NCBI GenBank assembly: GCA_965207995.1
Contig: OZ242299.1
Coordinates: 788,863 to 852,862 of the forward strand
Origin: Dehalococcoidia bacterium
GTDB lineage: Bacteria; Chloroflexota; Dehalococcoidia; SHYB01
Reading direction: 5' to 3'
DNA: 64,000 nucleotides
This document shows, in pieces, positions 17,609 through 34,443 of this stretch; the first letter of the stretch is position 1, and the number at the start of each line of letters is the position of its first letter. The notes under the pieces are model-generated. The model did not search any database. It had not been told where the DNA came from and saw only the letters and a list, made by a program, of their open reading frames with translations. The position numbers and the translations under genes are program-made.

Positions 17609-17624
17609 AGGTCTAGCTAGACCT
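17609..17624. terminator. perfect 16-bp palindrome AGGTCTAGCTAGACCT between convergent gene ends (possible bidirectional terminator hairpin)
   Basis: Read directly; overlaps the stop codon of the giant minus-strand gene and lies 18 nt after the stop of the plus-strand hydrolase gene; no U-tract. Confidence 0.25.
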
Positions 17625-20600
17625 CTTCGCCGTCGACGTCGATGTCGAACAGGCCGTCCTGGCCGTCGTAGCCCACCGCGACGTAGTAGAGGCCCGTGCT
17701 CGCCGGTTGGTAGACGACGGTGACACTCGAACCGCTGCCGCTGGAAGTGCCGGCGATCAGGTCGCCGTTGCTGTCGTAGATTCCGACGATCTTGACCTGT
17801 GTCGCGCGGTGCTTCTCCGGGACTTCGGCGCGCTCCGAGACCACCACGGTGTACTCGTATCCCTGGTCCATCTCGACCTTGAACCAGTCCTCGTCGCGGT
17901 CGTCGCCGTTCATGTCCCCAAGGAAGCCGCCGCTCGGGCCGTAGCCGTTGTGCTTGCTGGGGGCGGTGTACAGCTTACGAAGCGTGCTCGTGTCCCCGGG
18001 CGTGTCAAGGTCGCCGTAGCCGTCGGGCCCACCGGCATAGGGGTACCTCCGCTCGCCCTCGTACATCATGCAGATGTTGTTGACGCGGACCTTGATCTGG
18101 TACGTGCCGGTGCCGCCGCTTCCTCCAACCTCGATCCGGAAGGGGCCGGGGCTGCCCCACCACCAGCCTCCCAGGCTGTTCTCCCCGTAGCCACTGTCGG
18201 AGACGTGTGGGCTGTATTTGGCCCCCTCCGTCCCTTCCACGGCCTGAACGGAGATGAGTTCGGGATCGGCGAGGGTGAGGTTGCCAGGATGGGTGTCCCG
18301 GCCCAGCATGTCGCGGCCGTCCACGCCGATGACCTCGATGATGTAGTGCCGGTAGGGATCCGGGTCGAAGGTCCAGAAGGCCTTTTCGCCCGCTTGGGTG
18401 ATCTCGCCTATTTCGTCCAAGATGATGATCTCAGTGGCCAGGTTGTCGCACTCGGCGTTCGCCAGGGTGACCACCGCCGTACCGGGATCTCCAAGGACGA
18501 CCCCACTGGGCAGCGGCGTCTTGAAGCCGAGCCGCACCTTCTCGCCGCTGTCCTCGACGTTGTCGTCGAAGGCGACCACGGTGAAGGACTTTTCGTCCTC
18601 TCCCTGGTTGAAGGTCAGCGTCGTTGGCGCGCCCGACCAGTCTTCGGGAACGGCGCCCGCCATCGCCTCCGCGGTCACTTCGATGACCAGCCGCGACGGG
18701 GCCGGCTGGCTTAGGTGCACGACGACCGTGGCGTCTTCGCCGCCCTCGGTGGCCATGTACATATCGGAGCTGAAATAGACCTCGGTCTCGTCGTCGATGA
18801 CGGTGATGTTGACACTGCCCACGCTGATGCCGCTGTAGTCGGTGTCCGTGGAGGCCGCCGAGTGGGTGATGGTGGCCCTCTCCGCCAGCGCGTCGTCGTC
18901 CTGCTCGCCCGAAACCGTCACCGTCTGCTCGTCGTCCCAGTTGGAGTCGGTGAAGGTGAGCTCCGTCTCGTCGACGGATACGTTGGAGCTGCCCGACTTG
19001 GTGATGGTGATGACTACGTTGGCCGTGGGCTGCGAGGTCAGCACCACCGTGTAGGTGTTGCTGCTCCCCTCGTTGATCGTCAGCGAGGTCTGGGAGACCT
19101 TCACGCTCGCCCCGTCGTCGTCGTTGATGGAGATAACCGTCTCGTCGGGCGACACCGCGTCTACCCGGTCCAGCGTACTGGTGTCGAAGCTCAACTTCAC
19201 CGATTCTCCGTCGTCGTCCAGGCTGTCGTCGGTGGCGATGAAGTCGACGATGACTTCGGTCTCCCCGGTCTGGAAGGTCACGTTGTTCCCCAGGGGCGTG
19301 TAGTCGTTGCTGCTCGCGTCGTCCTGCTCGGTGGTGATGAGGGGGATGATCACCTGCCGCTCGGGGTCGGCGTTCAGCTTCACCTTGACCTCGACCGTGC
19401 TCCCCTCGTTGACGGAGTAACTGTCCAGCTCGAAGCTCACCTCGACGAACGGGTCGTCGTCGTCGTCGATACGGACCGTCGCCGCGTTCGTGGCCCCCTC
19501 GCTGACTCGGTCCGGGAAGTCGCCGGTATTGAACCTGAGCAGCACCGACTCGTTGTCGTCGTCCACCTCGTCATGTTCCGCTACGAAGGTGATGGTCTTC
19601 TCTGTCTCGCCACTCTCGAAGGTCACCTCTTGGGGCACCGCGTAGTCGGAGGCGCTTGCGCCGCCCTGCTCGCTCGCCGTGATGGAAACGACGACTTGCC
19701 GCTCGGGATCGGCGTTCAGCTTCACCTTCACCGCGACCTCGTTCTCCGCGACGTTGGGGGTGCTCGTATCGTCACTCTCCGCCACGTTGTACGTCGCCTG
19801 CCCGAAGCTCACCTCGACGGGCGGGTCGTCGTCGTCGTCGATGCTGACCGTCGTCTCGGGCGTTGCTCCCACTTCGACCCGGTCCAGCGAGCTGGTGTCA
19901 AAGCCCAGCTTCACCGACTCATCATCGTCGTCCACCGTGTCGTGGACCGCGGTGAAGGTGAAGGTCTTCTCCGTCTCCCCGTCCTCGAAGGTCACGTCGG
20001 CGGGCACGGTGAAGTCCCCGTCGCTCGCCCCGCCTTGCTTCAACTTGGTGATGGGGATGATCACCCGGCGCTCGGGATCGGCGCTCAGCTTCACCGTCAC
20101 CGTGACCTCGTTCTCCGCGACGTTGGTGGTGGTCGGATCGTCGCTCTCCGCAACTGAGTAGTCGGCTAGCTCGAAGTACACCGCCACGTGAGGGTCGTCG
20201 TCATCGTCAATGCTGACCGTCGTCTCGGCCGGGCTGCCATCGCTGACCCGGTCCAGCGAGCTGGTGTCGAAGCCCAGCTTCACCGACTCATCGTCGTCGT
20301 CCACCGTGTCCTCGACCGCGGTGAAGGTGAAGGTCTTTTCCGTCTCTCCGTCCTCGAAGGTCACGTTGGCGGGCACGGTGAAGTCCCCGTCGATCGCCCC
20401 GCCTTGCTTGGCCTTGGTGATGGGGATGATGACCTGCCGCTCAGGGTCGGCGCTCAGCTTCACCGTCACCGTGAGGTCGTCGCCCTCGTTGACGCTGTAG
20501 GCGTCGAGCTCGAAGCTGACCTCAACGGGCGGCACGTCGTCGTCGTTGATGGAGATCGTCGTTTCGACCACGGTCCCATCGCTGACGCTGTCTAACTCAC

Positions 20601-23523
20601 TGGTGTCCAAGGCCAGCTTCACCGACTCGCCGTCGTCGTCGATCGTGTCCTGTTCGGCGGCAAATGCGAACACGTGCTCAGTCTCGCCGTTGTTGAAGCC
20701 GACGACCGTGGGCAACGTCAAATAGTCATCCCTGGTCGCACCGTCCTGATCGGTTTTCACGATGGGAATGATCAGGTACCGCTCAGGGTCCACATCCAGG
20801 GTCACCTTGATTGTCACCGTGCCGCCTTCGTCGACTTCGTAGTTGGCCTCAGCGAAGCTCACCGTGACCGGCACATCCTCGTCGTCGATGGTCGTCACCT
20901 TGACGCTCCCGGCGGCGAAGTTGTTGTAGTCGGTGTCCGTGGAGGCAACGGTGTGGGTGATCGTGCCTTCGTCGTCGAGGTGGTCATCGTCCTGGTCGGC
21001 GGTGACGATGACCGTCTGCTCCTGGTTCCAGTCGGAGTCGGTGAAGGTAAGGGGCGTGGTGGCGTCAACAGATATATCGGGGCCGCTGGGCACGTTGACG
21101 GTTACCGTGACGTCGGCCGTGGGCTGGGAGGTCAGCACCACGGTGTAGGTGTCGGTGAGACCCTCTTCGATGGTGAGGCTGGGGGGCTCGATGGTGACGC
21201 CGGCGCCGTCGTCGTCGTTGATGCTGACCGTTGTCTGGGCGATGGTCCCGACACTGATGCGGCTCGGCAGGTCGGAGCCGAAGCTCAGCCTCACCGACTC
21301 CCCGTCGTCATTGAGCGTGTCCTGCGCCGCGGTGAAGGTGAACGTCTCCTCCGTGTCGCCGCTCGCGAAGGTCAGGGTCTCGGGCACGCCCGAGTAGTCG
21401 GCGGGGCTGTTCACGCCACCCTGATCGCTCTTGGTGAGGCGGATCTCCACCCGGCGCTCGGGATCGGCGCTGAGCGTCACCGTCACCTCCACCGTGTCCC
21501 CCTCGGCGACAGAGTAGGCAGCCTTGCCGAAGTTCACCTTGACGAACGGGTTATCGTCGTCGTTGATATCGATCGTGGCCTCGCCGTTGGTCCCCTCCGT
21601 CACCGCGTTGGGGAGGGTGCCGAAGCCCAGCTTCACCGACTCGTCGTCGTCGTCCACCGTGTCCTGGCGCGCGGTGAAGTTGAAGAACTTTTCCGTCTCC
21701 CCGCTCAGGAAGACCACGTTGCGGGGCACCCCCGAATAGTCGGAGCCGGTCGCGCCGTCCTGTTCCACCTTGTTGATAGGGATGACCACGCGGCGCTCGG
21801 GGTCTTCGCTGAGGCTGACCTCAACCCTCACGAGGTCGCCCTCGTCAACGAAGTAGGTGGCCTGCTCGAAGGTCACCGTCACCGGCACGTCCTCATCGTC
21901 GATGACGTCCACCTCGACGCTGCCCACGCTGATGCCGTTGTAGTCGCCGTCCGTGGAGCTAGCGGTGTGGGAGATGGTGGCGGACTCGTCGAGGTGGTCG
22001 GCATCGTCGTGGGCCGCCGTTACTCTCACCGTCTGCCTGTGGCCCCAATCGGAGTTGGTGAAGGTGAGCGTCGTTTCGTCGGTCGAGACGTCGGAACTGC
22101 CGGTCCTGGAGATGGTGATGACGACGTTGGCCGTGGGCTGGGAGTTCAGCACTACCGTATAGTCCCGGCTTCCGCCTTCGTTGATCGTGAGCGTCGTGGG
22201 GGAAACGATCACACCGGCGCCGTCGTCGTCGTTGATGCTGACGGTCGCCGTGGCGGTAGTCCCTTCGCTGACCTCGTCCAACTGACTGGTGTCGAAGCCC
22301 AAGGCAACCGACTCTCCGTCATCATCCAGCTTGTCCTGGTACGCGGAGAAGATGAAGGTTCTCTCCGTCTGCCCGCTCCTGAACGTCACGTCCTCGGGGA
22401 CGCCGGAATAGTCGTCGCTGCTCGCGTCCCCCTGCTCGGTCTTGGTGATGGGGATGACGACCTCTCGCTCAGGGTCCTTGTCGAGCGTCACCGTGACCCT
22501 GACCGTGTCTCCCTCGTTCACCGAGTAAGTGGCGGACTTGAAGTTCACCTCGACCGGCACTTCCTCGTCGTCGATCACTTTCACGCTGAGGCTGCGCACG
22601 CGGACGCCGTCGTAGTCGGCGTCGGTGGAGCTAGCCGTGTGCGAGATGGTGGCGGTCTCGTCGAGGTAGTCGTCGTCCTGCTCGGTGGAGACGGTGACCG
22701 TCTGCGGGGCGTCCCAAGTGGAGTCGGTAAAGGTGAGCGTCGTCTCGTCTACAGATACGTCGGCGTCGGTTGGCGTGCCGACCGTGACGACGACGTCGGC
22801 GGTGGGCTGGGAATTCAACCTCACGGTGTAGGTGTCTTCTTCACCCTCGTCGATGGTCAAACTGCTTGGGGAGACCCGCACGCCGACGCCATCGTTGTCG
22901 GTGATTTTGACCATCGCCTGGTTGTTGGGGCCCAAGGTCACCGCGTCGGGCAGCGGTGAGCCGATCCCCAGCGCGACCGCCTCTTCGTCGTCGTCCAGCA
23001 TGTCCTCGGTCGCCGCGAAGTCGAAGGTCTGCTCTGTCTCCCCGCTCTCGAAGATCACCTGGGTCGGTATACCCGAGTAGTCGGAAGGAGTGATGCCGCC
23101 GTACTGGGTCTGGGTGATGGGGATCACCACTTGGCGCCCGGGGTCGCCATCGAGCATGACCTTCACCGACACCCGGCTCCCCTCCTCGACGGCGTAGGTG
23201 GTCTGCTCGAAGCTCACCGCTACCTCTCTGATAGCCTCCGGGCCGTCGTCGTCGATGACGGAGATGGTGGTCGCCTTGATGGTGCCGGCGGAGACCGCGT
23301 TGGGAAGCTCTCCCAGGTCCAGCCGCAGCGACTCATCGTCGTCGTCCGAGACGTCCTGCGCCGCGGTGAAGGTGAAGGAGCTCGACGTCTCCCCGCTCTC
23401 GAAGGTGACGCTGGACGGCACGCCCGAATAGTCGGCGGACGTCAAGCCACCCTGTTCGGTCGCGGTAATGGGGACCACCACCTGCCGCTCCGGGTCCGCG
23501 CTGAGCGTCACCCTCACCACCAC
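17617..23523 (-). CDS. giant secreted Calx-beta repeat protein, C-terminal 1,968-aa portion (after the frameshift) with two C-terminal pre-peptidase (PPC) domains
   Basis: About 11 Calx-beta-like modules (F..Y.V.EG…L[SD].DPER.V.IPI……DY……V.F..GE.E..F.F.A..D..DDD.E) alternating with four ~105-aa modules (L.SQPTA.V..T……V.…LTFT..NW…QTV.V.A..D.D..DE..TI.H). The last ~270 aa hold two PPC-like domains (…DWFKVEMDQGYEYTVVV…GTSSGSGSSVTVVYQPASTGLYYVAVGYDGQDGLFDIDV). The first codon is GTG inside a Calx-beta domain, so this ORF is the continuation of 23333..25750. Confidence 0.8.
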   Translation of the reverse strand: MVVRVTLSADPERQVVVPITATEQGGLTSADYSGVPSSVTFESGETSSSFTFTAAQDVSDDDDESLRLDLGELPNAVSAGTIKATTISVIDDDGPEAIREVAVSFEQTTYAVEEGSRVSVKVMLDGDPGRQVVIPITQTQYGGITPSDYSGIPTQVIFESGETEQTFDFAATEDMLDDDEEAVALGIGSPLPDAVTLGPNNQAMVKITDNDGVGVRVSPSSLTIDEGEEDTYTVRLNSQPTADVVVTVGTPTDADVSVDETTLTFTDSTWDAPQTVTVSTEQDDDYLDETATISHTASSTDADYDGVRVRSLSVKVIDDEEVPVEVNFKSATYSVNEGDTVRVTVTLDKDPEREVVIPITKTEQGDASSDDYSGVPEDVTFRSGQTERTFIFSAYQDKLDDDGESVALGFDTSQLDEVSEGTTATATVSINDDDGAGVIVSPTTLTINEGGSRDYTVVLNSQPTANVVITISRTGSSDVSTDETTLTFTNSDWGHRQTVRVTAAHDDADHLDESATISHTASSTDGDYNGISVGSVEVDVIDDEDVPVTVTFEQATYFVDEGDLVRVEVSLSEDPERRVVIPINKVEQDGATGSDYSGVPRNVVFLSGETEKFFNFTARQDTVDDDDESVKLGFGTLPNAVTEGTNGEATIDINDDDNPFVKVNFGKAAYSVAEGDTVEVTVTLSADPERRVEIRLTKSDQGGVNSPADYSGVPETLTFASGDTEETFTFTAAQDTLNDDGESVRLSFGSDLPSRISVGTIAQTTVSINDDDGAGVTIEPPSLTIEEGLTDTYTVVLTSQPTADVTVTVNVPSGPDISVDATTPLTFTDSDWNQEQTVIVTADQDDDHLDDEGTITHTVASTDTDYNNFAAGSVKVTTIDDEDVPVTVSFAEANYEVDEGGTVTIKVTLDVDPERYLIIPIVKTDQDGATRDDYLTLPTVVGFNNGETEHVFAFAAEQDTIDDDGESVKLALDTSELDSVSDGTVVETTISINDDDVPPVEVSFELDAYSVNEGDDLTVTVKLSADPERQVIIPITKAKQGGAIDGDFTVPANVTFEDGETEKTFTFTAVEDTVDDDDESVKLGFDTSSLDRVSDGSPAETTVSIDDDDDPHVAVYFELADYSVAESDDPTTTNVAENEVTVTVKLSADPERRVIIPITKLKQGGASDGDFTVPADVTFEDGETEKTFTFTAVHDTVDDDDESVKLGFDTSSLDRVEVGATPETTVSIDDDDDPPVEVSFGQATYNVAESDDTSTPNVAENEVAVKVKLNADPERQVVVSITASEQGGASASDYAVPQEVTFESGETEKTITFVAEHDEVDDDNESVLLRFNTGDFPDRVSEGATNAATVRIDDDDDPFVEVSFELDSYSVNEGSTVEVKVKLNADPERQVIIPLITTEQDDASSNDYTPLGNNVTFQTGETEVIVDFIATDDSLDDDGESVKLSFDTSTLDRVDAVSPDETVISINDDDGASVKVSQTSLTINEGSSNTYTVVLTSQPTANVVITITKSGSSNVSVDETELTFTDSNWDDEQTVTVSGEQDDDALAERATITHSAASTDTDYSGISVGSVNITVIDDETEVYFSSDMYMATEGGEDATVVVHLSQPAPSRLVIEVTAEAMAGAVPEDWSGAPTTLTFNQGEDEKSFTVVAFDDNVEDSGEKVRLGFKTPLPSGVVLGDPGTAVVTLANAECDNLATEIIILDEIGEITQAGEKAFWTFDPDPYRHYIIEVIGVDGRDMLGRDTHPGNLTLADPELISVQAVEGTEGAKYSPHVSDSGYGENSLGGWWWGSPGPFRIEVGGSGGTGTYQIKVRVNNICMMYEGERRYPYAGGPDGYGDLDTPGDTSTLRKLYTAPSKHNGYGPSGGFLGDMNGDDRDEDWFKVEMDQGYEYTVVVSERAEVPEKHRATQVKIVGIYDSNGDLIAGTSSGSGSSVTVVYQPASTGLYYVAVGYDGQDGLFDIDVDGEEV

Positions 23524-25750
23524 GGCGTTGCCTTCGACAAACCGAGTAGCCGGTCCGTTCGAAGCTCACCGTCACGGATACCGGTGCTGTCGGTGCTGCC
23601 TCGGGGACTCGGGCGATTATCGTGGCATCATCGTCGACTATGGTGACGATGGTCTCGTCGTTCGTGCCGCCGAGGACCGCCGTCGGGAGGGTCCCGAAGT
23701 CCAGCTTCACCGACTCTTCATCGTCGTCCGCCTCATCCTGGACGGCCGTGAAGGTGAAGGACTGCTCGGTCTCCCCGCTCTCGAAGGTTACGTTCGACGG
23801 TACGCCTGAGTAGTCCGCGGACGTCATCCCGTTCTGCTCGACCGTCTCGATGGGAATGACCACCTGGCGCTCGGGGTCTTTGTCGAGGTTCACCTTGATG
23901 GTGACCATGCTCCCCTCGGTGACCCTGTAGCTGTCCCGTTCGAAACTCGCCTTCACCCGTACGTCGTCGCTGTCAAGGACGTGCACGTTGACGGCGGCCA
24001 CGGCCTTGCCGCTGTAGTCGCTTCCCGCCGCCGTAACCGCGTGGGTGATCGTGGCGGTGTCGTCGGTCCCGTCGAAGTCCTGGGCGGTCGAAACCATCAC
24101 CGTTTGCGCCGTTTCCCAGTTGGACGCGGTGAAGATGAGCGCGCGTTTGTCGACGGTTACGTCCGGGTTGTCCGGCGCCGTGACCGAGACGGTCACGTTC
24201 GCTGCCGGTTGCGAGGCCAGCACCACCGTATAGGGCTTGCTCAGGCCCTCGGCGACAGTCAGCGTGGTCGGGGAGACCGTTATTCCGGCGCCGTCGTCAT
24301 CAATGATGGTGACGGTGGCCTCGTTCGCCGGGCCCTCACTGACGCCGTTGGGCAGCGACGCGCCAAAGGCCAGCTTGACCGACTCGCCGTCGTTCTCTCC
24401 GTCGTCGTCGATGCTGTCCTGGACCGCGGTGAAGGTGAAGGACTGCTCCGTTTCCCCGCTCTCGAAGGTCACGCTCTCGGGCACGCCGGAGTAGTCGGCG
24501 CTGCTCGCGCCGTCCTGTTCGCTCGCCGTGATGGGAACCACGACGTGCCGCTCTGGGTCCGCGCTCAGGGTGATCGTCACGTCGACCTCGTCGCCTTCCG
24601 CAAGCGTGTAGGTGGCGGACTTGAAGCTCACCATCACGGACGGCACGTCATCGTCGTTGATGGAAACGGCCGTTTCGCTCGTGGCGCCGACGGTGACCGC
24701 GTTGGGCAGGCTCCCGAAACCGATCGTCACCGACTCATCGTCGTCGTCCACCATGTCCTGGACCGCGGTAAAGGTGAAGGTCTTCTCCCTCTCTCCGCTC
24801 TCGAAGGTCACGGTCTCGGGCACGCCCGTATAGTCGGCGGCGGTGACCCCGCCCCGCTCGCTCTTGGTGAGGGGAATGACCACCTGCCGCTCTGGGTCCG
24901 CGCTCAGCGTGACCTTCACGGTCGTTGCGCTTCCCTCGGCGACGACATGGGCGGCTTGATCGAAGGAGACGGTGACCGGCGCGTCCTCATCGTCGATGAC
25001 GGTCACGCCCACGCTGGCCATGCGGATGCCGTCGTAGTCGCCGTCGTCGGAGTTGACCGCATGGGCGATCGTGGCGCTCTCGTCCAGGTGGTCGTCGTCT
25101 TGGGCGGCGGACACCGTCACGGTCTGTTCGTCATCCCAGTTGGACGCGGTGAAGGTCAGGCTGCTCGTGTTCACCGACACGCCGGAGCCGCCGGAAGTCG
25201 CGAGGGTGACCGTGACGTCGGCCGTCGGCTGGGAGGCCAGCACCACCGTGTAGGTCGTACTGCCTCCCTCATCAACGGTCAGCGCGGTCTCGGACACGAC
25301 AACGCCGACGCCGTCATCGTCGTTGATGAACACGTCGGTCTCGTCGGTATCCCCTTCATTCACACCCGTGGGCAGGCTGCCGAAGGCCAACGAGACCGAC
25401 TCACCGTCGTCGTCCACGGTGTCTTGCGCGGCAGTCAGGGTGAAGGTCTTCTCCGTTTCCCAGCTCGCGAAGGTCACGGAGGCGGGTACGCCAGAGTAGT
25501 CCGAATCGCTCACGCCGCCCTCTTCGGTCGTGGTGATCGGGACCACCACCTCTCGTCCCGGGACGACGTCGAGCGTCACCGTGACGGTGACGCTTTGTCC
25601 CTCGGCGACGGCGTAGGAGCTTTGCTCGAAGCTGACCGCGACCCATGGGCCATCCTCGGACAAAGCAAAAGGCAAGGCCGCCGCGATCCCAATCACACCC
25701 AGCGCAGCAAAGCCCAGCACACGACTCTTGAGAGTGAGCAGGCTAAACAT
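23333..25750 (-). CDS. giant secreted Calx-beta repeat protein, N-terminal portion with signal peptide (authentic frame only from 25750 down to about 23541)
   Basis: Starts MFSLLTLKSRVLGFAALGVIGIAAALPFALSEDGPW (signal peptide), then 4 Calx-beta and 2 SQPTA-type modules. After …VSFERTGYSV the reading becomes nonsense (CRRQRRGGEG…); shifting by one nucleotide restores …VEGNAVVVRVTLSADPERQ, i.e. the start of ORF 17617..23523. Confidence 0.75.
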   Translation of the reverse strand: MFSLLTLKSRVLGFAALGVIGIAAALPFALSEDGPWVAVSFEQSSYAVAEGQSVTVTVTLDVVPGREVVVPITTTEEGGVSDSDYSGVPASVTFASWETEKTFTLTAAQDTVDDDGESVSLAFGSLPTGVNEGDTDETDVFINDDDGVGVVVSETALTVDEGGSTTYTVVLASQPTADVTVTLATSGGSGVSVNTSSLTFTASNWDDEQTVTVSAAQDDDHLDESATIAHAVNSDDGDYDGIRMASVGVTVIDDEDAPVTVSFDQAAHVVAEGSATTVKVTLSADPERQVVIPLTKSERGGVTAADYTGVPETVTFESGEREKTFTFTAVQDMVDDDDESVTIGFGSLPNAVTVGATSETAVSINDDDVPSVMVSFKSATYTLAEGDEVDVTITLSADPERHVVVPITASEQDGASSADYSGVPESVTFESGETEQSFTFTAVQDSIDDDGENDGESVKLAFGASLPNGVSEGPANEATVTIIDDDGAGITVSPTTLTVAEGLSKPYTVVLASQPAANVTVSVTAPDNPDVTVDKRALIFTASNWETAQTVMVSTAQDFDGTDDTATITHAVTAAGSDYSGKAVAAVNVHVLDSDDVRVKASFERDSYRVTEGSMVTIKVNLDKDPERQVVIPIETVEQNGMTSADYSGVPSNVTFESGETEQSFTFTAVQDEADDDEESVKLDFGTLPTAVLGGTNDETIVTIVDDDATIIARVPEAAPTAPVSVTVSFERTGYSVCRRQRRGGEGDAQRGPGAAGGGPHYRDRTGWLDVRRLFGRAVQRHLRERGDVELLHLHRGAGRLGRRR

Positions 25751-25989: not shown

Positions 25990-28900
25990 CTACACCGTCA
26001 GACGGCGGTAAAGCTGCGGTAGCCGCTCCGGCAGCGTGTGGATGTCGGCGACGACCTCGTAGCCCATGTCGCCGCCCATCATCGTCTTCAGGTAGTCGTG
26101 GCCGGCCCGGTCGACGGTGAGGCAGAACGGTGTGATACCCAAGCGCCGCGCTTCGAGCAGCGCCATGCGCGTGTCGTGGACCGCGTACTCTTTCTCCACG
26201 CCCTCGCGGCTGTAGCCCCGGTCCTGCGGCCGGCCATCACTGAGCAGGAAGAGCACCTTGGTGCGAGCCTCGTGGTCGTCGAGCTTGCTGACCGCGTGCC
26301 GGATCGCCGGCCCCATGCGCGTGGCGTGCATCGGCGTGATCTTGTCGAGGCGGCGCTTCACGTTCTCACCGAAGGTTTCCGCGATGTCCTTGACCACGTA
26401 GAACTCGACGTTTTCGCGACCGTAGCCGGAGAAGCCGTAGATGCCGTACTGATCGCCGATGGCCTCCAGCGCCTTGATGAGCAGCACCGTGCTCTCTTTC
26501 TCGATGTCGATGATCCGCTTGTAGGTGCGGCGGCTCATCTCCTCGCGGCGGGTGCGGAGCCACGTCATGTAATCGCGCGGGTCGTCGGGGAAGTCCCACG
26601 AGTCGAACTGCCGGCGCGTCTCATCGACGGCCTCGGCGGTCGAGGCGCTCATGTCGAGCAGGAAGCTCACCGCGACATCGCGCTCGATTTTGTTGCGTCG
26701 CCAGTAGATCTTGTCCGTCGGCGTGTCGCCCGCGCGGGCTTGGATCATGGCCTCGACGACCAGGTCGAAGTCGTACTCCTCCCCGTCGGGAAGGTGCTTG
26801 ACCCTCCGCAGCTGCTCCGGCGCCAGCGACTCGAACTGCTTCTTGATGCGCGAGACGAGTCCATAGTGCGCCCGCAGCGTTCGCTCGAAGAAGTCGACAG
26901 TGCCCTCATCCATGCGCTTCTCGCGCACCGCGCACCAGCGGGGCTTGTAGTCCCCGGCCCGGAAGTCCCACTCGTCGTAGAGGAACGTCTCGGCTTCGCT
27001 CGCCAGCGGGGCGTCGTCGTCCTCGCTGTGCTGGAACTGCGTCCCCTGCTTCGACTTGGCCTGCTGTTGCCGCGCCGCCTCGTTGATCAGGTTGTCGACG
27101 AACTGGCTCGACGACTGCGGCAGGTCGCCCTCTTGCGCCTCCGCGACCTCGATCTCGGCCGACTTTTCGAGCAGTTGTCGCAAGTCTTCCTCGGAGAGCC
27201 CCGTGATCTCCATCGGGTTCTGCGCCTTCGAGCGCTCGTTCTTGAGGTTGTCGAACGCCTGCACGAGCTCGGGCTTGAACTCGCCGCGGAAGTCCACCAT
27301 CTGGGGACTCTTGTATTCCTGCTCGTCGCCGTCGGGCTGGCCCTCGCCCGAGGCGCCCTCCATGAGGTCTTGCAGCATTTGGTCGAGGTCGCCCTCGTCG
27401 CCGTCCTGGCCCATCTCGTCCATGCTGCGTTCTTCGCCGCTTTCGGGGTCGGCCTCGACGTTGGGCACCGTGCTCAGCAGGTCGTAGATGCGGATCGTCG
27501 CCTCCGCCGTGTCTTCGACCGTCCGTTCCTCGTGTTGCATCGTCCGCACCAGCACCGCCAGAGCGTCGAGATACTCCGAGATCTCGGCCGGCGTCTTGAC
27601 CGTCCCCGTCTCCTCCAGGCTCAGCCGGACCAGCACCTCCATCGCCGCCTCCCGCAGCGGCAAGCTGTCCGGTTCCGGGCGCGAGCGCAGCGACTCGCGC
27701 TGCACCCGGCTGTAGCTCTCGCCGATGCCGGCGTACTCGTACTTCACCCGGTGGTCGATACGCCCGTCTTCGACGAGCATGAAGATGTCCGAGGCCAACT
27801 TCCGGTCGCTGAACAGATCGAAGAACCGCTCCAGGTCGATCCGCGCGCCGCCGTCGCCGTCGCGCTTGCCCAGGACGGCCCGCTGCTCCTCGGCGGCGAA
27901 GACCGTGGACGGCTTGTCGAACTGGAAGCCGAAGCTCCCGAACTCCAGGTGTGCTACCTGGTGGGTCGCGATGACCTTGAACCACGCGAAGTTCTCGTCC
28001 TTCGTGGTGTACCGCTCCACAAACGTAGGGAGGAAGATGTTGTCGCCCTCCGTCGTGGCATAGTCAGAAGACGTCCAACCGATCCCCTTGCCCTGCAGCT
28101 CGTCGGTGGGCCGCAGCTCGACCCGTTGGCCCGCGAGCGCGCGGCAATACATGGTGAGGACTTCGTTCACCCGCGCCAGATCGAGCCCCGATGAGAGGTC
28201 TTCGATGGCCCGCTCCGCGCGGCCCGATTCGAGGCGGAAGAAGGCGAGGCCGCCGTCCTCGTTCTCGTCGAGGACGCGCAGCCCCGCATTGAACCAGCCC
28301 TCCAGCCGCTCGCCGCGCAGCCGGTTCATCACCACCGGCGCGTTCTTGACGAACTCTCCCACCGCGGCAGCCGAGTGGTCGGCGAGCCGGTCGGCCATGT
28401 CGAGGAGCGGACCGTGCCAGTCCGGGTGCACCTCGCCAAGAGCGGCGGAGGCTTCCACGAGGAACGTGATCGTGTTGCCCGCCCCCTGCTGCGAGAGCTG
28501 CTGCGCCAAATCGAGGAAGCGTCCGCGCTGGCGGGGCTCCACGCGCTCGATGATCTTCGGGCCGTTCTCGAAATACGGCTTGACGTCGCGCCAGTTCCCG
28601 CGCACCAGCACCGAGCCCAGGTTCAGGAAGCTGACACGGTCGCCGGGGTCGATCTTGGGAAAGACGCCGCTCGCCAGCGCGAGGCACTCGTTCGCCAGGT
28701 CGTACGACTTCTGGGCCAGGCTGTCGATAAAGTCGACGAGGTCTTCAAGTTCCTGGAGGGTGAGCGCGCCCAGCAGCCGCGGGCTCGCCTCGAAGTAGGT
28801 CGAGGCCAGGGAGCTCGACTTCCACGTTCCCTTGTAGAGCCGCTTGCCGACGCCGGCCCAGCGCCCCAACTCCGAGCCTCGCACGTAGGGAATCACCTCG

Positions 28901-29223
28901 GGCGTGGCGCGGAAGAAGGACGATGAGATGACCGGCGAGTCGGACGACAGCGCTCGGCCCCACCGGGCCCACTCCATCACCTCGGGGAATTCGAGCGCCT
29001 GCACCACGCGCGGTGTCGACTTGAAGTACTCGGTCGCCGCTTCCCAGGATCGGAAGGTGTGCTGCGCCAGCGAGACGCCCTCCGCCGCCCACGCTTGGTA
29101 GTCGTCGGCGCCGAGGTGCTTGCGGGCCGCTTCCTCGGCGCCGCGGAACTCGGTGACCACGGACACGGGGAATCGCTGCAGTTGCGATTCGAACGTGGCG
29201 GGGTCGTAAGCCTTATCCGTCAC
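25990..29223 (-). CDS. von Willebrand factor A domain protein, CbbO/NorD-like partner of CbbQ-type MoxR ATPase (1,077 aa)
   Basis: C-terminal VWA domain with MIDAS DxSxS (FLLDMSASTAE); N-terminal ~350 aa has degenerate helical repeats as in CbbO/NorD; long acidic low-complexity insert (…PESGEERSMDEMGQDGDEGDLDQMLQDLMEGASGEGQPDGDEQEY…); 76 nt downstream of the ATPase gene. Confidence 0.8.
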   Translation of the reverse strand: MTDKAYDPATFESQLQRFPVSVVTEFRGAEEAARKHLGADDYQAWAAEGVSLAQHTFRSWEAATEYFKSTPRVVQALEFPEVMEWARWGRALSSDSPVISSSFFRATPEVIPYVRGSELGRWAGVGKRLYKGTWKSSSLASTYFEASPRLLGALTLQELEDLVDFIDSLAQKSYDLANECLALASGVFPKIDPGDRVSFLNLGSVLVRGNWRDVKPYFENGPKIIERVEPRQRGRFLDLAQQLSQQGAGNTITFLVEASAALGEVHPDWHGPLLDMADRLADHSAAAVGEFVKNAPVVMNRLRGERLEGWFNAGLRVLDENEDGGLAFFRLESGRAERAIEDLSSGLDLARVNEVLTMYCRALAGQRVELRPTDELQGKGIGWTSSDYATTEGDNIFLPTFVERYTTKDENFAWFKVIATHQVAHLEFGSFGFQFDKPSTVFAAEEQRAVLGKRDGDGGARIDLERFFDLFSDRKLASDIFMLVEDGRIDHRVKYEYAGIGESYSRVQRESLRSRPEPDSLPLREAAMEVLVRLSLEETGTVKTPAEISEYLDALAVLVRTMQHEERTVEDTAEATIRIYDLLSTVPNVEADPESGEERSMDEMGQDGDEGDLDQMLQDLMEGASGEGQPDGDEQEYKSPQMVDFRGEFKPELVQAFDNLKNERSKAQNPMEITGLSEEDLRQLLEKSAEIEVAEAQEGDLPQSSSQFVDNLINEAARQQQAKSKQGTQFQHSEDDDAPLASEAETFLYDEWDFRAGDYKPRWCAVREKRMDEGTVDFFERTLRAHYGLVSRIKKQFESLAPEQLRRVKHLPDGEEYDFDLVVEAMIQARAGDTPTDKIYWRRNKIERDVAVSFLLDMSASTAEAVDETRRQFDSWDFPDDPRDYMTWLRTRREEMSRRTYKRIIDIEKESTVLLIKALEAIGDQYGIYGFSGYGRENVEFYVVKDIAETFGENVKRRLDKITPMHATRMGPAIRHAVSKLDDHEARTKVLFLLSDGRPQDRGYSREGVEKEYAVHDTRMALLEARRLGITPFCLTVDRAGHDYLKTMMGGDMGYEVVADIHTLPERLPQLYRRLTV

Positions 29224-29299
29224 GGAAGCACTTCCATCGCCGGACTCTCGTCCTCACTGGAGCGGCGGCCGGGGAGCGAAACGTCGCCCGCCGCCGGGC

Positions 29300-30202
29300 C
29301 TAGGGGAAGATGCTCGAGACGACCTCTTCGATGCTGCGCTGCACCTCGTGGTCGTCGGTCAGCCCCCACACCACCGCCGCCTGACAGGCACGGCGAGCCG
29401 GAATGCCCCCCGCGATCAGCCGGCCCGCGTAGATGAGCAGGCGCGTGCTCACGCCTTCGTGCAGGCCGTGGTCCTTGAGGTGCCGCACCTTCTCACCCAG
29501 CTTGGCGAGATTCATCGCCACCTCGGGCCCCACGCCGGCCTCGTGCTCGATCACCTGCGTCTCGATTTCTCTGGGGGAGTAGTCGAACTCGAGCGAGATG
29601 AACCGCTGGCGCGTGCTGTGCTTCAAGTCCTTCAGCGCGCTCTGGTAGCCAGGGTTGTACGACATCACCAGCAGGAATTGGTCGCTGGCCTCCAGGATCT
29701 CGCCGCGCTTCTCCACGGGCAGCAGGCGCCGGTGGTCGGTCAGCGGGTGGATGAGCACCGTCGTGTCCTTCCGCGCCTCGACGATCTCGTCGAGGTAGCA
29801 GATGGCCCCGGCCTTCACCGCCCGGCTCAGCGGGCCGTCGATCCACTTCGTCTCCTGCCCCTCCAAGAGATAGCGGCCCACCAGGTCGCTGGATGTCAAG
29901 TCCTCGTGGCAGGCAATGGTGACCAGGGGCAGCCCCTTGCCCGTCCCATTCTTCGAGGCCGCCTTGCCGCGCTTCCTGCCTTTTACGAGGGGCCGGCCCA
30001 GCCGCCAAGACATGTACTCCACGAACCGCGTCTTGCCGCAGCCCGTCGGCCCCTTCAGCAGCACCGGGATCTTGGTCTTGTAGGCCGCCTCGAATACCTC
30101 CACTTCGTCGTTGACCGGCAGATAGAAGGGCTCCTCTTCGAGGAGGTACTCTTCGATGATGTAGTGGCGATAGAGCGTCTGCTCTCTGCCTGTTGTGGCC
30201 AT
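29300..30202 (-). CDS. CbbQ/NirQ/NorQ/GvpN-family MoxR AAA+ ATPase
   Basis: 300 aa; Walker [18 protein letters not shown], Walker B ICYLDEI, sensor/arginine-finger regions characteristic of the CbbQ subfamily; carries a ~20-aa Lys/Gly-rich insertion ([20 protein letters not shown]) after …WRLGRPL that is absent from the CbbQ consensus as I recall it. Confidence 0.85.
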
Positions 30203-30236: not shown

Positions 30237-30833
30237 CTAGGCCGCGACGCGCGCCTCGAAGGCCGCCCGCACCCGCTCCCGCACCTCGTCCAACGTGGCG
30301 TCCGTGTCGATTACCACGTCGGCATAGCTCTGGCGCTCCTCCGCCGGCATCTGCGACGCCATCCGCGAGCGCACCTGCTCTTCTTCCCAGCCATTCCGCG
30401 CCATCACCCGCTGCACCACCACGTCCTCCGGCGCCGCCGTCACCCAGACCTCGTCGACCAGCGACGTCCACTTCGCCTCGATCAGGATCGCAGCGTCCAC
30501 CACCACCACCCGCTTCCCCTCACCGCGAAAAGCCTCGATCCGGTCGTTCATGATGTCGCGCATGCGGGGATGCACAATGCTGTTGAGTTTTTCCAGGTTC
30601 GCGGGGTCGCTGAAGACGATGGCGCCGAGCTTCTTGCGGTCGATCTCCCGGTTGGGTTGGAGCAGGTCTTCGCCCCAGGTGTCGATCAAGTCTCGCCACG
30701 CCGGCATATCCGGCAAGTACGTTACGTGACCGACCTTGTCGGCGTCGATGACCTCGGCGCCTAGCTCTTCGAGAAAACCGGATACGGTGGTCTTGCCGCT
30801 GCCAATTCCGCCGGTCAGACCGATCACGAGCAT
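30237..30833 (-). CDS. coaE: dephospho-CoA kinase
   Basis: 198 aa; P-loop [14 protein letters not shown] at the N-terminus and overall CoaE signature. Confidence 0.85.
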
Positions 30834-31036
30834 GCGACGCCGACCCTCGTTCCCTTCTGGTATCCCCGCCGTAGGCAGTCTCGCATTTTAGCAGCGCCCC
30901 TTCTGAGGGGTCAAGGAAACCGCACCTTTCCCCGGCCAACGGCGGGCGGCGGCGCGAGGGCTCCCTCGGAGGCGCGGCGCGGTATACTGAGGGCGTAGCC
31001 CCAGGGAGCCGTGAGGCCCGTAGGACAGGAGCAAGC

Positions 31037-31600
31037 GTGACCGTCCTTCCCTTGCAATACGCCCCGGAGTCGGTGCTCCGCCGGAAGGCGAAGCGCGTCG
31101 CCAAGATCGACGCCAAGGTCCAGCGCCTGATCGACGACCTGATCGAGACGATGTACGCGGAGGACGGCATCGGCCTCGCCGCCAATCAAGTCGGCGTCCC
31201 CCTACGCGTCCTCGTCATGGGCATCCCCTATAAGGACCCCGACACCGAAGAGGTCTACCGCGAGGAATACGTCCTCGTGAACCCCGAGTTCGTCAAGAAG
31301 GGGGGCGAGCGGCTCGTATCCGAGGGCTGCCTCAGCATCCCCGGCTACCGGGGCCAGCTCACCCGCGCCGAGTGGGTCAAGGTCAAGGGCCTCGACCGCG
31401 ACGGCAAACCGGTGCGCCTCAAGGCCGATGGCATCATGGCCCAAGCCCTCGAACACGAGATCGACCACCTCGACGGCATCCTCTACGTCGACCGCATGAA
31501 AGAGCAGGGCACGCTCGACACCCTCGCCCCCATCGAGCAGGAGGAGTCCGAGGAGTCGGAAGCCCTGCGCGAAGTCTCAGGCGAAGTGCCCGCGGCCTAG
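31037..31600 (+). CDS. def: peptide deformylase
   Basis: GTG start with AGGAGC SD; three PDF motifs present: GIGLAANQVG, EGCLSIPG, HEIDHLDG. Confidence 0.9.
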   Translation: MTVLPLQYAPESVLRRKAKRVAKIDAKVQRLIDDLIETMYAEDGIGLAANQVGVPLRVLVMGIPYKDPDTEEVYREEYVLVNPEFVKKGGERLVSEGCLSIPGYRGQLTRAEWVKVKGLDRDGKPVRLKADGIMAQALEHEIDHLDGILYVDRMKEQGTLDTLAPIEQEESEESEALREVSGEVPAA

Positions 31601-31622: not shown

Positions 31623-33116
31623 ATGTCCATTGCAGCAATCCTCAACGCCGCGCGCCGCGCGTTGGGCGAGCGCCACGCCTCCGCGTGGGTCGCCGGCGGC
31701 GCGGTCCGCGACGCCCTCCTCGGCCGCGAGCCCGCCGACCTCGACCTCGCCGTCGACGTCGACGACGTTGGCGAGCTGGCCCGCGCCGTCGCCGAAGCCT
31801 CCGGGGCCTCCGCCGTCGCCCTCGACGCCGAACGCGGCATCCACCGCATCGTCTCCCGCGACGACGGCTCGTCCGTCGACCTGACCCTCGCCGCGGAAGG
31901 CATCGGCCCCGACCTGCTCCGGCGCGACTTCACCATCAATGCCATGGCGCTGCCTCTGCAGCTCTGGCCCAACGCCGCGGCGCCCCTCGTCGTCGATCCC
32001 GCCGGCGGGCTGGACGACCTGCGAGCAAAGCGCCTCCGGGCCGTCAGCGAGGAAGGCCTCGCCGCCGATCCGGTGCGCATGGTGCGGGCAGTCCGTCTCT
32101 GCGCCGAGCTCGGCCTCGAACTCGAATCCCAGACGGCGGCGTGGATCACCTCCGGCGCGGCGCGCATCGCGTCGAGCGCGCCGGAGCGCGTGCGGGACGA
32201 GCTCGTCCGGCTCATACGCCCGCCCGGCGCGGCGCGCCATCTGCGCCTCCTCGACCGCCTCGGCCTGCTGACCCAAATCATCCCCGAGCTCGAAGCGGCG
32301 CGCGAAACCACCCAACCCAAGGAGCACTACTGGAACGTCCTCGAACACTCGATAGAAGCCGTCGGCAAGGTCCAAGGCGTCCTCCGCGTCGAAGCGCTCG
32401 ACCCCGAACCCGAACCGGCCGTCCCCTGGGACTCCCGCGACGACGACCACGCCGCCGAGCCCGTCGGCGGCGGCCGGACGAGAGCCGACGCCCTCCGCCT
32501 CGCCGCCCTCCTGCACGACGTGGCCAAGCCCGCCTGCAAGACCGTCGAGGCCGATGGGCGCATCCGCTTCCTGGGCCATGCCAAGGAGGGCGCGGTCATG
32601 ACCGAACAGGTCATGGAGCGGCTCCGCTTCTCGAACCGCGAGCGGCGCTTGGTCGCCGCGATGGTCCGGGAGCATCTGCGGCCCGGGATGATCACTCGCG
32701 AGCCGGGCGGCCCGAGCCGGCGGGCGCTCCACCGCTATTTCCGCGACGCCGGCGACGCGGCCGTCGACACGCTCTACCTCAGCTTCGCCGACTACCTCGC
32801 GGCGCGAGGCCCGCGGTTCGACCCGGCCGACTGGGCCGCCTACGCCGAAAGGATTCATGGTATCCTTGTCGCCTACTATTCGAGAGAGAGCGAGGCCACC
32901 GCTCCCCGGCTCGTCGACGGCCACGACCTCATGGGAGCGCTCGGCCTCGAACCCGGCCCGATCGTCGGTCGGCTTATGGAAACCCTGAGAGAAGCGCAAG
33001 CCGCCGGAGAGATCGAGACTCGGCCTCAAGCCATCGCCCTCGCCGGTAAGCTGCTCGCCGAGGGCTCCGCGGCTAGCTCCCCAAAGCGCCCCCAAAGGAG
33101 CCGGCGTGCGGATTAG
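31623..33116 (+). CDS. cca: CCA-adding tRNA nucleotidyltransferase / poly(A) polymerase family protein with HD domain
   Basis: 497 aa; Pol-beta nucleotidyltransferase head (GGAVRDALLGREPADLDLAV…RRDFTINAMA) and HD domain (…LLHDVAKP…). Confidence 0.8.
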   Translation: MSIAAILNAARRALGERHASAWVAGGAVRDALLGREPADLDLAVDVDDVGELARAVAEASGASAVALDAERGIHRIVSRDDGSSVDLTLAAEGIGPDLLRRDFTINAMALPLQLWPNAAAPLVVDPAGGLDDLRAKRLRAVSEEGLAADPVRMVRAVRLCAELGLELESQTAAWITSGAARIASSAPERVRDELVRLIRPPGAARHLRLLDRLGLLTQIIPELEAARETTQPKEHYWNVLEHSIEAVGKVQGVLRVEALDPEPEPAVPWDSRDDDHAAEPVGGGRTRADALRLAALLHDVAKPACKTVEADGRIRFLGHAKEGAVMTEQVMERLRFSNRERRLVAAMVREHLRPGMITREPGGPSRRALHRYFRDAGDAAVDTLYLSFADYLAARGPRFDPADWAAYAERIHGILVAYYSRESEATAPRLVDGHDLMGALGLEPGPIVGRLMETLREAQAAGEIETRPQAIALAGKLLAEGSAASSPKRPQRSRRAD

Positions 33117-34443
33117 TCGAAACCGCATCTTCCTTGCGATCATCGTCGTCGTCTTCACGCTGGCGATCCTGTCTCTGGTTTTCCGCACCGTCAACATCGG
33201 CGGCTTCGAGCGCGGCTCGGACGAGGGCCCGCTCGGCCTGCGGCTCGGCCTCGACCTGCAGGGCGGCACGCTGCTCATCTATCGCGCCGACGACCCCAAC
33301 GTCACGGCCGACCAGATCGAGGGCGTCGTCGACGTCATCAGCCGCCGCGTCAACGCTTTCGGCGTGACCGAACCCCTGATCCAGCAGAGCGGCAGCAACG
33401 AGATCATCATCCAGCTCGCCGGCATCACCGACGTCGGCGAGGCCATCGATCTCATTGGCGGCACCGCCCAACTCGACTTCCGCGAATGCCTCGACCCGCA
33501 GTGCTCGCAGAACCAGCCCGCCCTCGCCGAAGGCAACGGCGGCGTTACCAAGCACCTCACCGGCGAGTTCCTGCGTCCGACCTCAGCCGTGGTTTCCGAC
33601 CCCACAACAGGGCTCCCCGTGGTGACGTTCGACTTCAATGGCGAAGGCTCGCGCATGTTCGAGCAGATCACCCGGCGCAACATCGGCCAGCCTTTGGGTA
33701 TCTTCCTCGACGACGGCCTGATCTCTAGCCCAACGGTCCAGGCCGTCATCGCCGGCAGTGGGCGCATCACCGGCCTCACGCGCGGCGACGCCCGGATCCT
33801 CGCCATTCAGCTGAACGGCGGCGCGCTGCCGGTGAGCATCAGCGTGGTGCGGCAAGACGAAGTCTCCGCAACCTTGGGCGAGGACTCCCTGAACAGGAGC
33901 TACGCCGCCGCCGCAATCGGGCTGGGGCTGGTGATGCTCTTCATGCTGCTCTACTACCGGCTGCTCGGGCTGATCGCGGTAGCCGCCCTGGTCTTGTACA
34001 CCGTGTTGATCTTGGCCGCCTTCAAGATCGTGGGGGTCACCCTGACGCTATCCGGCCTCTCCGCCTTCGTCGTCTCCGTCGGTATGGCCGTGGACGCCAA
34101 CGTCATCATCTTCGAGCGTATGCGCGAGGAGCTGCGCGCGGGCCGCACGCTGGGCGCGGCCATCGAGGCCGGCTTCGACCGCGCCTGGTCGGCCATCCGG
34201 GACAGCCAGATCACCACCTTCATCGTCATGCTCATCCTCTGGTGGTTCGGCGACCAACTCGGCGAGCCGCGCGTGATCGGCTTCGCCATCACCCTCATGC
34301 TCGCGATCATCGCCAGCGTCTTCACCGCCTTCGTCGTAACCCGGACCATTCTTCGCATGCTCGTCGGCATGCCGTTCTCGGGCAATACCAGGCTCTTCGC
34401 CGACATTCGCGAGACGCAACGCACCACGCCGGCGGTGAGTTGA
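33106..34443 (+). CDS. secD: protein translocase subunit SecD
   Basis: 445 aa; N-terminal TM helix, periplasmic P1 domain, C-terminal RND-like 6-TM bundle with conserved …DANVIIFERMREE… motif; overlaps the cca stop by 11 nt. Confidence 0.85.
   Translation: MRISRNRIFLAIIVVVFTLAILSLVFRTVNIGGFERGSDEGPLGLRLGLDLQGGTLLIYRADDPNVTADQIEGVVDVISRRVNAFGVTEPLIQQSGSNEIIIQLAGITDVGEAIDLIGGTAQLDFRECLDPQCSQNQPALAEGNGGVTKHLTGEFLRPTSAVVSDPTTGLPVVTFDFNGEGSRMFEQITRRNIGQPLGIFLDDGLISSPTVQAVIAGSGRITGLTRGDARILAIQLNGGALPVSISVVRQDEVSATLGEDSLNRSYAAAAIGLGLVMLFMLLYYRLLGLIAVAALVLYTVLILAAFKIVGVTLTLSGLSAFVVSVGMAVDANVIIFERMREELRAGRTLGAAIEAGFDRAWSAIRDSQITTFIVMLILWWFGDQLGEPRVIGFAITLMLAIIASVFTAFVVTRTILRMLVGMPFSGNTRLFADIRETQRTTPAVS

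Follow-up and report, generated by a model that had tools for sequence, protein, structure and literature searches.

Pairs composed of a MoxR-type AAA+ ATPase and a partner with a VWA domain (von Willebrand factor type A) are widespread, and clients have been established for only a few of them, namely RuBisCO (the carboxylase/oxygenase of ribulose-1,5-bisphosphate), the nitric oxide reductase that depends on cytochrome c (cNOR), carbon monoxide dehydrogenase (CODH), chelatases and Nuo/Frd. Orphan CbbQ/CbbO-like pairs without assigned clients have been noted in Proteobacteria (PMC5437159). A pair of this kind is encoded in a 64-kb stretch of DNA (67% GC) from contig OZ242299.1 of a Dehalococcoidia bacterium, referred to in what follows as the window, to whose positions all coordinates refer, and the question that it raises is what such a machine acts upon in these organisms. 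We consider it probable that the pair is a cytosolic AAA+/VWA remodeling chaperone of the CbbQO/NorQD type, representing a Dehalococcoidia/SAR202-wide branch and serving a conserved cytoplasmic client that is possibly related to coenzyme A (CoA). The client is not the giant Calx-beta protein encoded next door and is probably neither RuBisCO nor nitric oxide reductase (NOR); most likely it is one of the conserved enzymes in the cytoplasm of these bacteria, and the best available guess, suggested weakly by the operon context, is that it is linked to CoA or nucleotide-cofactor metabolism.

A preliminary description of this DNA had listed the two open reading frames (ORFs) and assigned them to the CbbQ/NorQ-type MoxR ATPases and the CbbO/NorD-type VWA adaptors. 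Both are present on the minus strand, the ATPase (300 aa) at 29300..30202 (-) and the VWA protein (1,077 aa) at 25990..29223 (-), with a GC content at third codon positions of 0.91 in each that is typical for real genes of the window, and both Pfam and matches to solved structures bear out the assignment. In the case of the ATPase an AAA_5 domain (PF07728, 3.3e-30, aa 46-201) is followed by a CbbQ_C lid (PF08406, 1.5e-29, aa 214-297), both above cutoff, and the protein aligns end to end in phmmer searches with CsoCbbQ (5c3c, 3e-100), AfCbbQ2 (6l1q, 2e-98) and NorQ (9qhd, 5e-93; 9qh4, 1e-90). The Walker A (GPTGCGKT, aa 51-58) and Walker B (ICYLDE, aa 134-139) motifs are intact, and residues 109-118 (29849..29878, (-)) fit the helix-2-insert motif GRXLL/IXXXXT that in NorQ contacts the finger of NorD (PMC13036017), so that we predict an equivalent contact with the finger of the VWA protein here. 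Lid, Walker motifs and helix-2-insert motif together place the ATPase in the CGN (CbbQ/NorQ/GvpN) subfamily.

One feature sets this ATPase and those of its clade apart from CbbQ and NorQ. The preliminary description had pointed to a Lys/Gly-rich insert of about 20 residues after the Walker A helix and had asked whether it marks a clade. The insert is real, comprising 21 residues (aa 72-92; 29927..29989, (-)) that separate the Walker A helix from strand β2, with 7 K/R, 5 G and no D/E, and it appears as a single gap in alignments with both CbbQ and NorQ. Its position is indeed a property of the clade, as each of the 65 clade ATPases with sequence across this region has it at the identical site, with a length of 15-32 aa. 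Its composition is not; the loop is rich in K/R in the subgroup of the window only and acidic or neutral in most clade ATPases, and we have therefore rejected Lys-rich composition as a clade marker. The loop is flanked by Cys55, part of the P-loop, and Cys98, part of strand β2, which, judging from their spacing in the sequence, may correspond to C46 and C68 of PdNorQ, where they form an inhibitory disulfide that blocks ATP binding (PMC13036017).

The second protein of the pair has a single Pfam domain, VWA (PF00092, aa 902-1049, 1.7e-06, above cutoff). As had been noted before, it is about 300 aa longer than CbbO (291 aa longer than the carboxysomal CbbO of 786 aa), and it exceeds NorD (638-646 aa) by about 430 aa. 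At the N-terminus an AlphaFold2 model shows an entirely helical α-solenoid (aa 37-343; 28195..29115, (-)) with a predicted local distance difference test score (pLDDT) of ∼90, made up of eight tandem helical hairpins of ∼37 residues. In agreement with the model, the autocorrelation of the sequence profile over this region is maximal at a shift of 37, with a value of 0.145 that compares with a maximum of -0.546 for shuffled controls. There follows a middle domain (aa 344-592; 27448..28194, (-)) with the invariant motifs H421-Q-x-x-H425-x-E427 and E485-D-x-R-x-D490, which when modeled alone gives a pLDDT of 86.7 and a predicted template modeling score of 0.86. No matches for this domain were obtained by sequence to NorD, zincins, Pfam or the PDB, and a Foldseek search was also empty, while the corresponding search with the model of the whole VWA protein returned VWA matches only. 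A zincin-like (gluzincin) site consists of an HExxH helix and a downstream helix with a Glu/Asp ligand on a β-sheet/helix core, and possibly the middle domain is a degenerate version of such a metal site, which we offer as a tentative lead only.

Between the middle domain and the VWA domain there is a disordered, low-complexity linker (aa 593-745; 26989..27447, (-); pLDDT <50) that is acidic and variable in all members of the family. The preliminary description had referred to an Asp/Glu-rich insert of ∼60 residues and, while the acidic stretch is certainly there (21 D/E within aa 589-648), it is not an insert but rather part of the linker common to NorD and CbbO proteins. In NorD the corresponding position is taken by a disordered linker that is functionally essential (PMC13036017). 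[quoted passage not shown] In the VWA domain itself (aa 851-1077) a complete MIDAS is found, with the DxSxS motif D857/S859/S861 (26641..26655, (-)) completed by T968 and D996. These residues are invariant in the family alignment and line up with the MIDAS motifs of both NorD and CbbO. Directly after the MIDAS strand comes a highly conserved, family-specific insert of 35 aa (aa 868-903, ...WDFPDDPRDYMTWLRTRREEMSRRTYKRI; 26515..26622, (-)) that is absent from NorD, CbbO and the VWA protein of the actinobacterium Miltoncostaea discussed below, and in which P879, D880, P882, Y885, W888, L889, R890, R892, R893, R898 and R899 are invariant. The protein ends in the conserved sequence ...LPQLYRRLTV (25993..26023, (-)), with L1064, P1065, R1067, L1068, L1071, Y1072 and L1075 invariant. 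The final residues of NorD are needed for binding of NorQ (PMC13036017) and, by analogy, the C-terminus of the present protein is predicted to dock on the ATPase's post-sensor-1 loop.

Comparison of profiles establishes the adaptor as a homologue of CbbO, with hhalign aligning aa 267-1077 with residues 113-785 of the carboxysomal CbbO at a probability of 99.95% (E = 1.2e-38, 26% identity). The two share the N-domain HxxxH and ED-R motifs, a disordered linker, a VWA domain with intact MIDAS and the conserved C-terminus. Only the last two or so solenoid repeats are taken in by the alignment and, relative to CbbO, the adaptor has approximately four extra N-terminal 37-residue repeats, a longer acidic linker and the 35-aa insert beside the MIDAS. 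We therefore regard it as a CbbO-family protein with three additions, namely repeats, a longer linker and an element on the ligand face.

These additions are not peculiar to the gene in the window. A search of a large protein collection gave 550 homologues of the VWA protein, of which the top 120 listed nearly all fall within 1,050-1,111 aa in length, and the members among those 120 that carry a taxon name are without exception Chloroflexi, Dehalococcoidia or 'bacterium HR23'. At least 564 stretches matched when a single genome for each species was scanned, and the best 80 are all from Dehalococcoidia/Chloroflexota/SAR202 metagenome-assembled genomes (MAGs); the nearest relative among the matches listed is OZ220069.1 (L001), with 98% protein and ∼92% nucleotide identity. 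When the N-terminal 740 aa are used alone as a query, 1,120 clusters at 50% identity are recovered, 223 of which score 1e-30 or better, and members with as little as 22% identity in the N-terminal region still belong to SAR202 or Chloroflexota. Length, acidic linker and N-terminal region are thus family-wide features and, on the strength of these sequence comparisons, the pair is taken to be a large Dehalococcoidia/SAR202-wide branch of the CbbQO/NorQD family. Versions without the solenoid also exist. The two that we examined, P0186 and P0275, are encoded at L091 5001-7250 (749 aa) and L092 1229-3403 (724 aa), where both genes stand alone, having neither the ATPase nor coaE nor a Nudix gene beside them. 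P0186, which comes from a Dehalococcoidia MAG, shows 45% identity over aa 346-1077; the solenoid is thus a modular add-on. The possibility that the short homologues of 724-789 aa are true CbbO proteins was considered and rejected, as P0186 is Dehalococcoidial and aligns as a solenoid-less relative. One length cluster of short homologues mixes gene calls of 1,083 aa and 748 aa.

What might the client be? The strongest clue comes from gene neighborhood, which the preliminary description had put forward for checking while overlooking that the pair is part of a deeply conserved cassette beginning with coaE. In order to establish gene order we called and clustered ORFs in 80 loci and checked the results by tblastn, with 82 loci having enough upstream sequence to be testable. 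The order is coaE, ATPase, a Nudix gene resembling CoA pyrophosphatases, and VWA. The first gene, encoding dephospho-CoA kinase (198 aa; 30237..30833, (-); Pfam CoaE 1.2e-49; TIGR00152 1.5e-50, above cutoff), is a same-strand neighbor of the pair in 81 of the 82 testable loci; the ATPase gene is likewise present in 81, and the Nudix gene, coding for ∼195 aa, separates the ATPase gene from the VWA gene in 74. Median gaps are 2 nt between coaE and ATPase, 24 nt between ATPase and Nudix and 1 nt between Nudix and VWA, with many of the junctions overlapping. Specific matches of the Nudix protein are confined to CoA pyrophosphatases, namely NCBIfam PRK10707, with 5e-31, which is below the cutoff of that model, and among solved structures NUDT11, the D. 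radiodurans CoA pyrophosphatase 1nqy and NUDT7. The cassette is intact in members that are only 22-32% identical in the N-terminal region and whose flanks are wholly different, with tuf-rpmG-secE-nusG-rplKAJL downstream of the VWA gene in L081, L082 and L087 and DUF4340 and ATP-binding cassette (ABC) transport genes in L085. In L086 the order has become PHP-ATPase-VWA-coaE, so that coaE is relocated and still adjacent, with Nudix missing; the gene directly upstream of the ATPase in this locus (4270-4977) encodes the PHP-domain protein. Only L050 lacks all three neighbors (coaE, ATPase and Nudix). Upstream of rimI-coaE in many loci there is, in addition, a conserved protein of ∼415 aa without a Pfam match (ORF cluster c18, for example L046 2790-4043).

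The Nudix gene is absent at the window and at L001, L002, L055, L056, L077 and L086, and no copy was found elsewhere in the window by tblastn. The site that it occupies in most relatives is in the window a spacer of 76 bp between the ATPase and VWA genes (29224..29299, (-)); a GC-rich hairpin in this spacer folds no better as RNA than shuffled sequences (z = -0.16). Presumably the ancestral cassette had the Nudix gene at this position and it would have been lost in the lineage of the window. Upstream of coaE, in a spacer of 203 bp that separates it from the divergent peptide deformylase gene def (31037-31600, (+)), there is a candidate σ70-like promoter, TTGACC-18-TAAAAT with a TG extension (30885..30914, (-)), identified by its match to the consensus only. 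Two promoter-like sites were found where 0.3 are expected from shuffled sequence, and coaE, ATPase and VWA may well be transcribed together from the one upstream of coaE.

Based on the solved NorQD and CbbQO systems (PMC13036017, PMC5437159) we propose that six ATPase subunits would form a hexameric ring that is plugged by one VWA protein, with the finger of the latter reaching the helix-2 inserts and its C-terminus the post-sensor-1 loop. The MIDAS face, reshaped by the 35-aa insert, would grip an acidic residue of the client by coordinating it, while the N-terminal solenoid and middle domain would provide a second anchor and client specificity. Hydrolysis of ATP could then drive a rotation that twists or stretches the acidic linker and remodels the client, which once opened might accept a cofactor or metal or release a tightly bound inhibitor. 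All of the sequence elements that a mechanism of this sort requires are conserved in the pair.

A number of observations weigh against a conserved, possibly CoA-related client of such a chaperone. The link with CoA is drawn from gene order alone, and synteny is in general high in Dehalococcoidia. The loss of the Nudix gene in the lineage of the window and in a few others implies that it is dispensable for the pair. Solenoid-less VWA relatives do without adjacent ATPase, coaE or Nudix genes altogether, and the finger, linker and VWA regions have pLDDT values <50 in many segments. Moreover, coaE is found in mixed housekeeping operons of many bacteria. A literature search gave no papers linking CbbQ, NorQ or MoxR with coaE or Nudix, nor any on this Chloroflexota/SAR202 branch or its coaE/Nudix cassette.

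It is possible, though in our estimation less probable than the chaperone with a cytoplasmic, perhaps CoA-related client that we favor, that the linkage to coaE and Nudix is a matter of operon hitch-hiking and that the client has nothing to do with CoA, being instead a respiratory, iron-sulfur or molybdenum enzyme as for RavA-ViaA or CoxDE. The flanking genes rimI, selA, rarA and cinA and those for ribosomal proteins are all of the housekeeping type, Nudix has been lost repeatedly, stand-alone relatives exist, and the clients of MoxR proteins are usually metalloenzymes (PMC13036017, PMC5437159). Yet coaE has stayed adjacent both after replacement of the two flanks and after internal rearrangement, and the ATPase is flanked by two independent CoA-nucleotide enzymes with overlapping reading frames, both of which speak against hitch-hiking.

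At the other extreme one can imagine an explicit CoA-linked 'activase', a rather unlikely scenario as it stands, in which the machine would open a conserved CoA- or dephospho-CoA-binding enzyme, or CoaE itself, so as to free a tightly held dead-end nucleotide derived from CoA or load a cofactor, with the Nudix enzyme destroying the released species and CoaE regenerating CoA. Such an activity would be analogous to the removal of inhibitory sugar phosphates by RuBisCO activase, and the invariant HQxxH/ED-R-D site of the middle domain might serve to bind a metal or nucleotide.

The remaining possibilities are those suggested by the best known relatives, beginning with NorQ-NorD, the chaperone that inserts Fe(B) into cNOR (P. 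denitrificans, J. thermophila; PDB 9qh4-9qhg; PMC13036017, PMC9976466). That the pair inserts a metal into a NOR or other heme-copper oxidase encoded elsewhere in the genome is unlikely, although among solved complexes NorQ/NorD comes nearest to the VWA half. With R. pomeroyi NorQ the ATPase shares 54% identity, and it has in common with NorQ the helix-2-insert motif and, judging from spacing, the cysteines at the redox-pair positions C46/C68. NorD (9qhd_G) matches the adaptor with E = 8e-44 over aa 748-868 and 904-1075, that is the end of the linker, finger region, MIDAS and C-terminus, and both proteins follow a common plan of N-domain, disordered linker and finger-VWA. Helix-2-insert motif, finger region, C-terminus and paired cysteines appear to be conserved in sequence (PMC13036017). 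However, the N-terminal 740 aa of the adaptor have no detectable similarity to NorD's N-terminal domain, in contrast to that of CbbO, with which there is homology, and it is the N-domains, unrelated between NorD and CbbO, that probably confer client specificity (PMC9976466). NorD also lacks the insert in the VWA domain, and norCB genes are absent near the pair. Several homologues are named 'NorD' in source databases, Dehalococcoidia proteins annotated by JGI among them, but such names are automatic and unreliable in this family; even the CbbO encoded in the carboxysome (cso) cluster of the N. hamburgensis plasmid NC_007959.1 (L083 7857-10217) goes by the RefSeq/PGAP name 'nitric oxide reductase activation protein NorD'.

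Genes for the clients of either system were looked for in the DNA flanking the cassettes, up to 23 kb for each locus and 1.85 Mb in total, with the cso cluster of N. hamburgensis and the nor cluster of R. pomeroyi as positive controls for RuBisCO and NOR, respectively. No RbcL, RbcS, NorB or NorC was detected by tblastn in the window and 85 related loci, nor is there a cbbLS/cbbM/carboxysome or norCBQD(EF) cluster at any of them, a result that argues against both NOR and RuBisCO as clients. The statement in the preliminary description that the window contains no RuBisCO, NOR or CODH gene agrees with our Pfam annotation of ORFs >250 aa.

The CbbQ-CbbO systems (A. ferrooxidans CbbQ2O2, 6l1q; CsoCbbQ, 5c3c; the N. 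hamburgensis plasmid) have the same layout of two genes, ATPase followed by VWA. Hallmarks of a CbbQO activase are a RuBisCO client with a C-terminal H/KR motif and stimulation of the ATPase by inhibited RuBisCO (PMC5437159). In principle the pair could be a true activase whose RuBisCO or RuBisCO-like client is encoded at another place in the genome. The top solved matches of the ATPase are CbbQ proteins, as described above, and the adaptor aligns over almost all of CbbO, taking in the HxxxH and ED-R motifs, which are missing from NorD. We nonetheless consider this very unlikely. The identity to CbbO is low, the 35-aa element on the MIDAS face and the extra N-terminal repeats are missing from CbbO, and NorQ (54% identity) is as close to the ATPase as is CbbQ (51% to the N. 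hamburgensis protein over 285 aligned columns, gaps included), from which the ATPase differs by the 15-32-aa loop after the Walker A helix. In contrast to cbbQO, the pair is embedded in a coaE/Nudix cassette with RuBisCO absent from all 86 loci. Calvin-Benson-Bassham cycle genes are not among the annotated window ORFs, and the lineages carrying this housekeeping cassette have a visible gene content that is heterotrophic. The hosts of CbbQO are sulfur- or nitrite-oxidizing Proteobacteria, whereas the pair belongs to Chloroflexota.

The gene content of the window illustrates this point. Housekeeping genes recognized by Pfam include leuS, def, the CCA-adding enzyme, secDF, ruvB, cinA and those for electron transfer flavoprotein, and there are catabolic, heterotrophic genes for luciferase-like monooxygenases, amidohydrolases and acyl-CoA enzymes. 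The regions 1-16000 and 43000-63200, whose content is typical of aerobic SAR202-like heterotrophs, encode three luciferase-like monooxygenases, three Amidohydro_2 proteins, one acyl-CoA dehydrogenase, two ADP-forming acyl-CoA-synthetase-like proteins, a thiolase-like protein, an AMP-binding ligase, a thioesterase and a phosphoenolpyruvate-mutase/isocitrate-lyase-family protein. No tRNA was found in the 64 kb, and Rfam gave zero matches. A SecF-like protein encoded at 34515-37220 (+) is unusually long (901 aa), with Sec_GG at aa 32-52 and SecD_SecF_C at aa 695-881 as its only domains and ∼640 aa inserted between them without a Pfam match; it is preceded by a normal SecD of 445 aa (33106-34443).

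The giant neighbor is the least promising client. The preliminary description had noted that the pair is transcribed in the same direction as a secreted Calx-beta repeat protein, as is indeed the case, with the Calx-beta ORFs at 17617-25750 (-) separated from the VWA gene by a spacer of 239 bp that has a GC content of 54% overall and of 40% in its last 100 bp. The single protein of ∼2,710 aa that had been assumed is in the window split by a frameshift near 23534-23538 into ORFs of 805 aa and 1,968 aa that overlap by ∼190 nt, while L001, 92% identical, has one intact ORF of 2,719 aa; the frameshift may stem from a homopolymer error in long reads or may mark a real pseudogene. The hint of a functional link does not hold up either, and the adjacency appears to be incidental. 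A giant gene follows VWA only in the window and L001 of the 86 loci. At the other loci VWA is followed variously by a convergent cinA with genes for ABC transport, by tuf-secE-nusG or by still others, and in most of them cinA is its direct neighbor. In the window cinA is found at 15301-16776, ∼0.8 kb past the far end of Calx-beta, so that the giant gene looks to have been inserted between the VWA gene and cinA. It has a promoter-like site of its own, the second of the two mentioned above, that lies in the 239-bp spacer and ends 10 nt before the Calx-beta ATG, and its product has a hydrophobic, signal-peptide-like N-terminus of a sort that neither the ATPase nor the VWA protein possesses. Nucleotide similarity between the window and L001 runs from 39018 down to 17616 (∼21298 in L001), ending right after the Calx-beta stop codon, and the genes beyond 17616 differ between the two, marking a boundary of rearrangement or insertion. 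Divalent cations are bound by both VWA MIDAS sites and Calx-beta domains. That shared property and the same-strand arrangement across a gap of only 239 bp notwithstanding, a pair dedicated to folding, Ca2+ loading or export of the Calx-beta protein is highly improbable and we have rejected it on the grounds of synteny, the separate promoter-like site, the signal-like N-terminus and the frameshift.

Other MoxR-type systems are alike in their general logic, an AAA+ ring with a MIDAS-bearing VWA partner by which a particular enzyme is matured or metalated, but RavA-ViaA, CoxD-CoxE, GvpN, CobS-CobT and BchI-BchD belong to different subfamilies from the pair. The acidic linker resembles that of BchD/ChlD. 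With the GvpN model TIGR02640 the ATPase reaches 49.9 bits, where the cutoff is 266.8, and no gvp genes are present among the annotated ORFs of the window, and other NCBIfam equivalogs match neither the ATPase nor the VWA protein. For the ATPase the defense-system models of PADLOC gave nothing beyond P-loop-level matches, at E values from 2e-4 upward, and the VWA protein matched none of them.

The closest relative outside of the phylum is found on a plasmid of Miltoncostaea oceani (Thermoleophilia; NZ_CP064358.1), whose ATPase is 59.6% identical, the closest in the plasmid collection. Here the adaptor is split into a protein of 362 aa, which matches the last of the solenoid repeats together with the beginning of the middle domain, and a VWA protein of 548 aa that is 45% identical over aa 730-1077 with the same ...LPQLYRRLT C-terminus. 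The ATPase loop, the VWA insert, coaE and Nudix are all missing, and the plasmid-borne module lies within a cluster for CoA-thioester and F420 catabolism. The plasmid (L084/L088, 46.6 kb) carries genes for F420 biosynthesis (cofCDEGH) in addition to the CoA-thioester catabolic genes. The split module recurs at 80-94% identity on many metagenomic contigs of ∼40-48 kb (P0308-P0427), the two named carriers being Acidimicrobiales and Thermoleophilia MAGs, which suggests a conserved element of plasmid size across actinobacterial classes.

The machinery described here is familiar and its function inferential, while the architecture is distinctive and the conservation solid. What emerges is an orphan branch conserved across a whole class of environmentally abundant bacteria, the Dehalococcoidia, including marine SAR202, whose signatures are an extended solenoid of 37-residue repeats, an insert on the MIDAS face, a loop in the ATPase and an unusually stable operon with two CoA-nucleotide enzymes. 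The analysis provides a testable hypothesis for the client as well as clear domain boundaries for biochemistry. Should the link to CoA be true, the activase/metal-insertion paradigm would come to include cofactor homeostasis; otherwise the pair would still be a chaperone that is well defined and specific to the phylum, and its client may be among the core enzymes of these uncultured bacteria.

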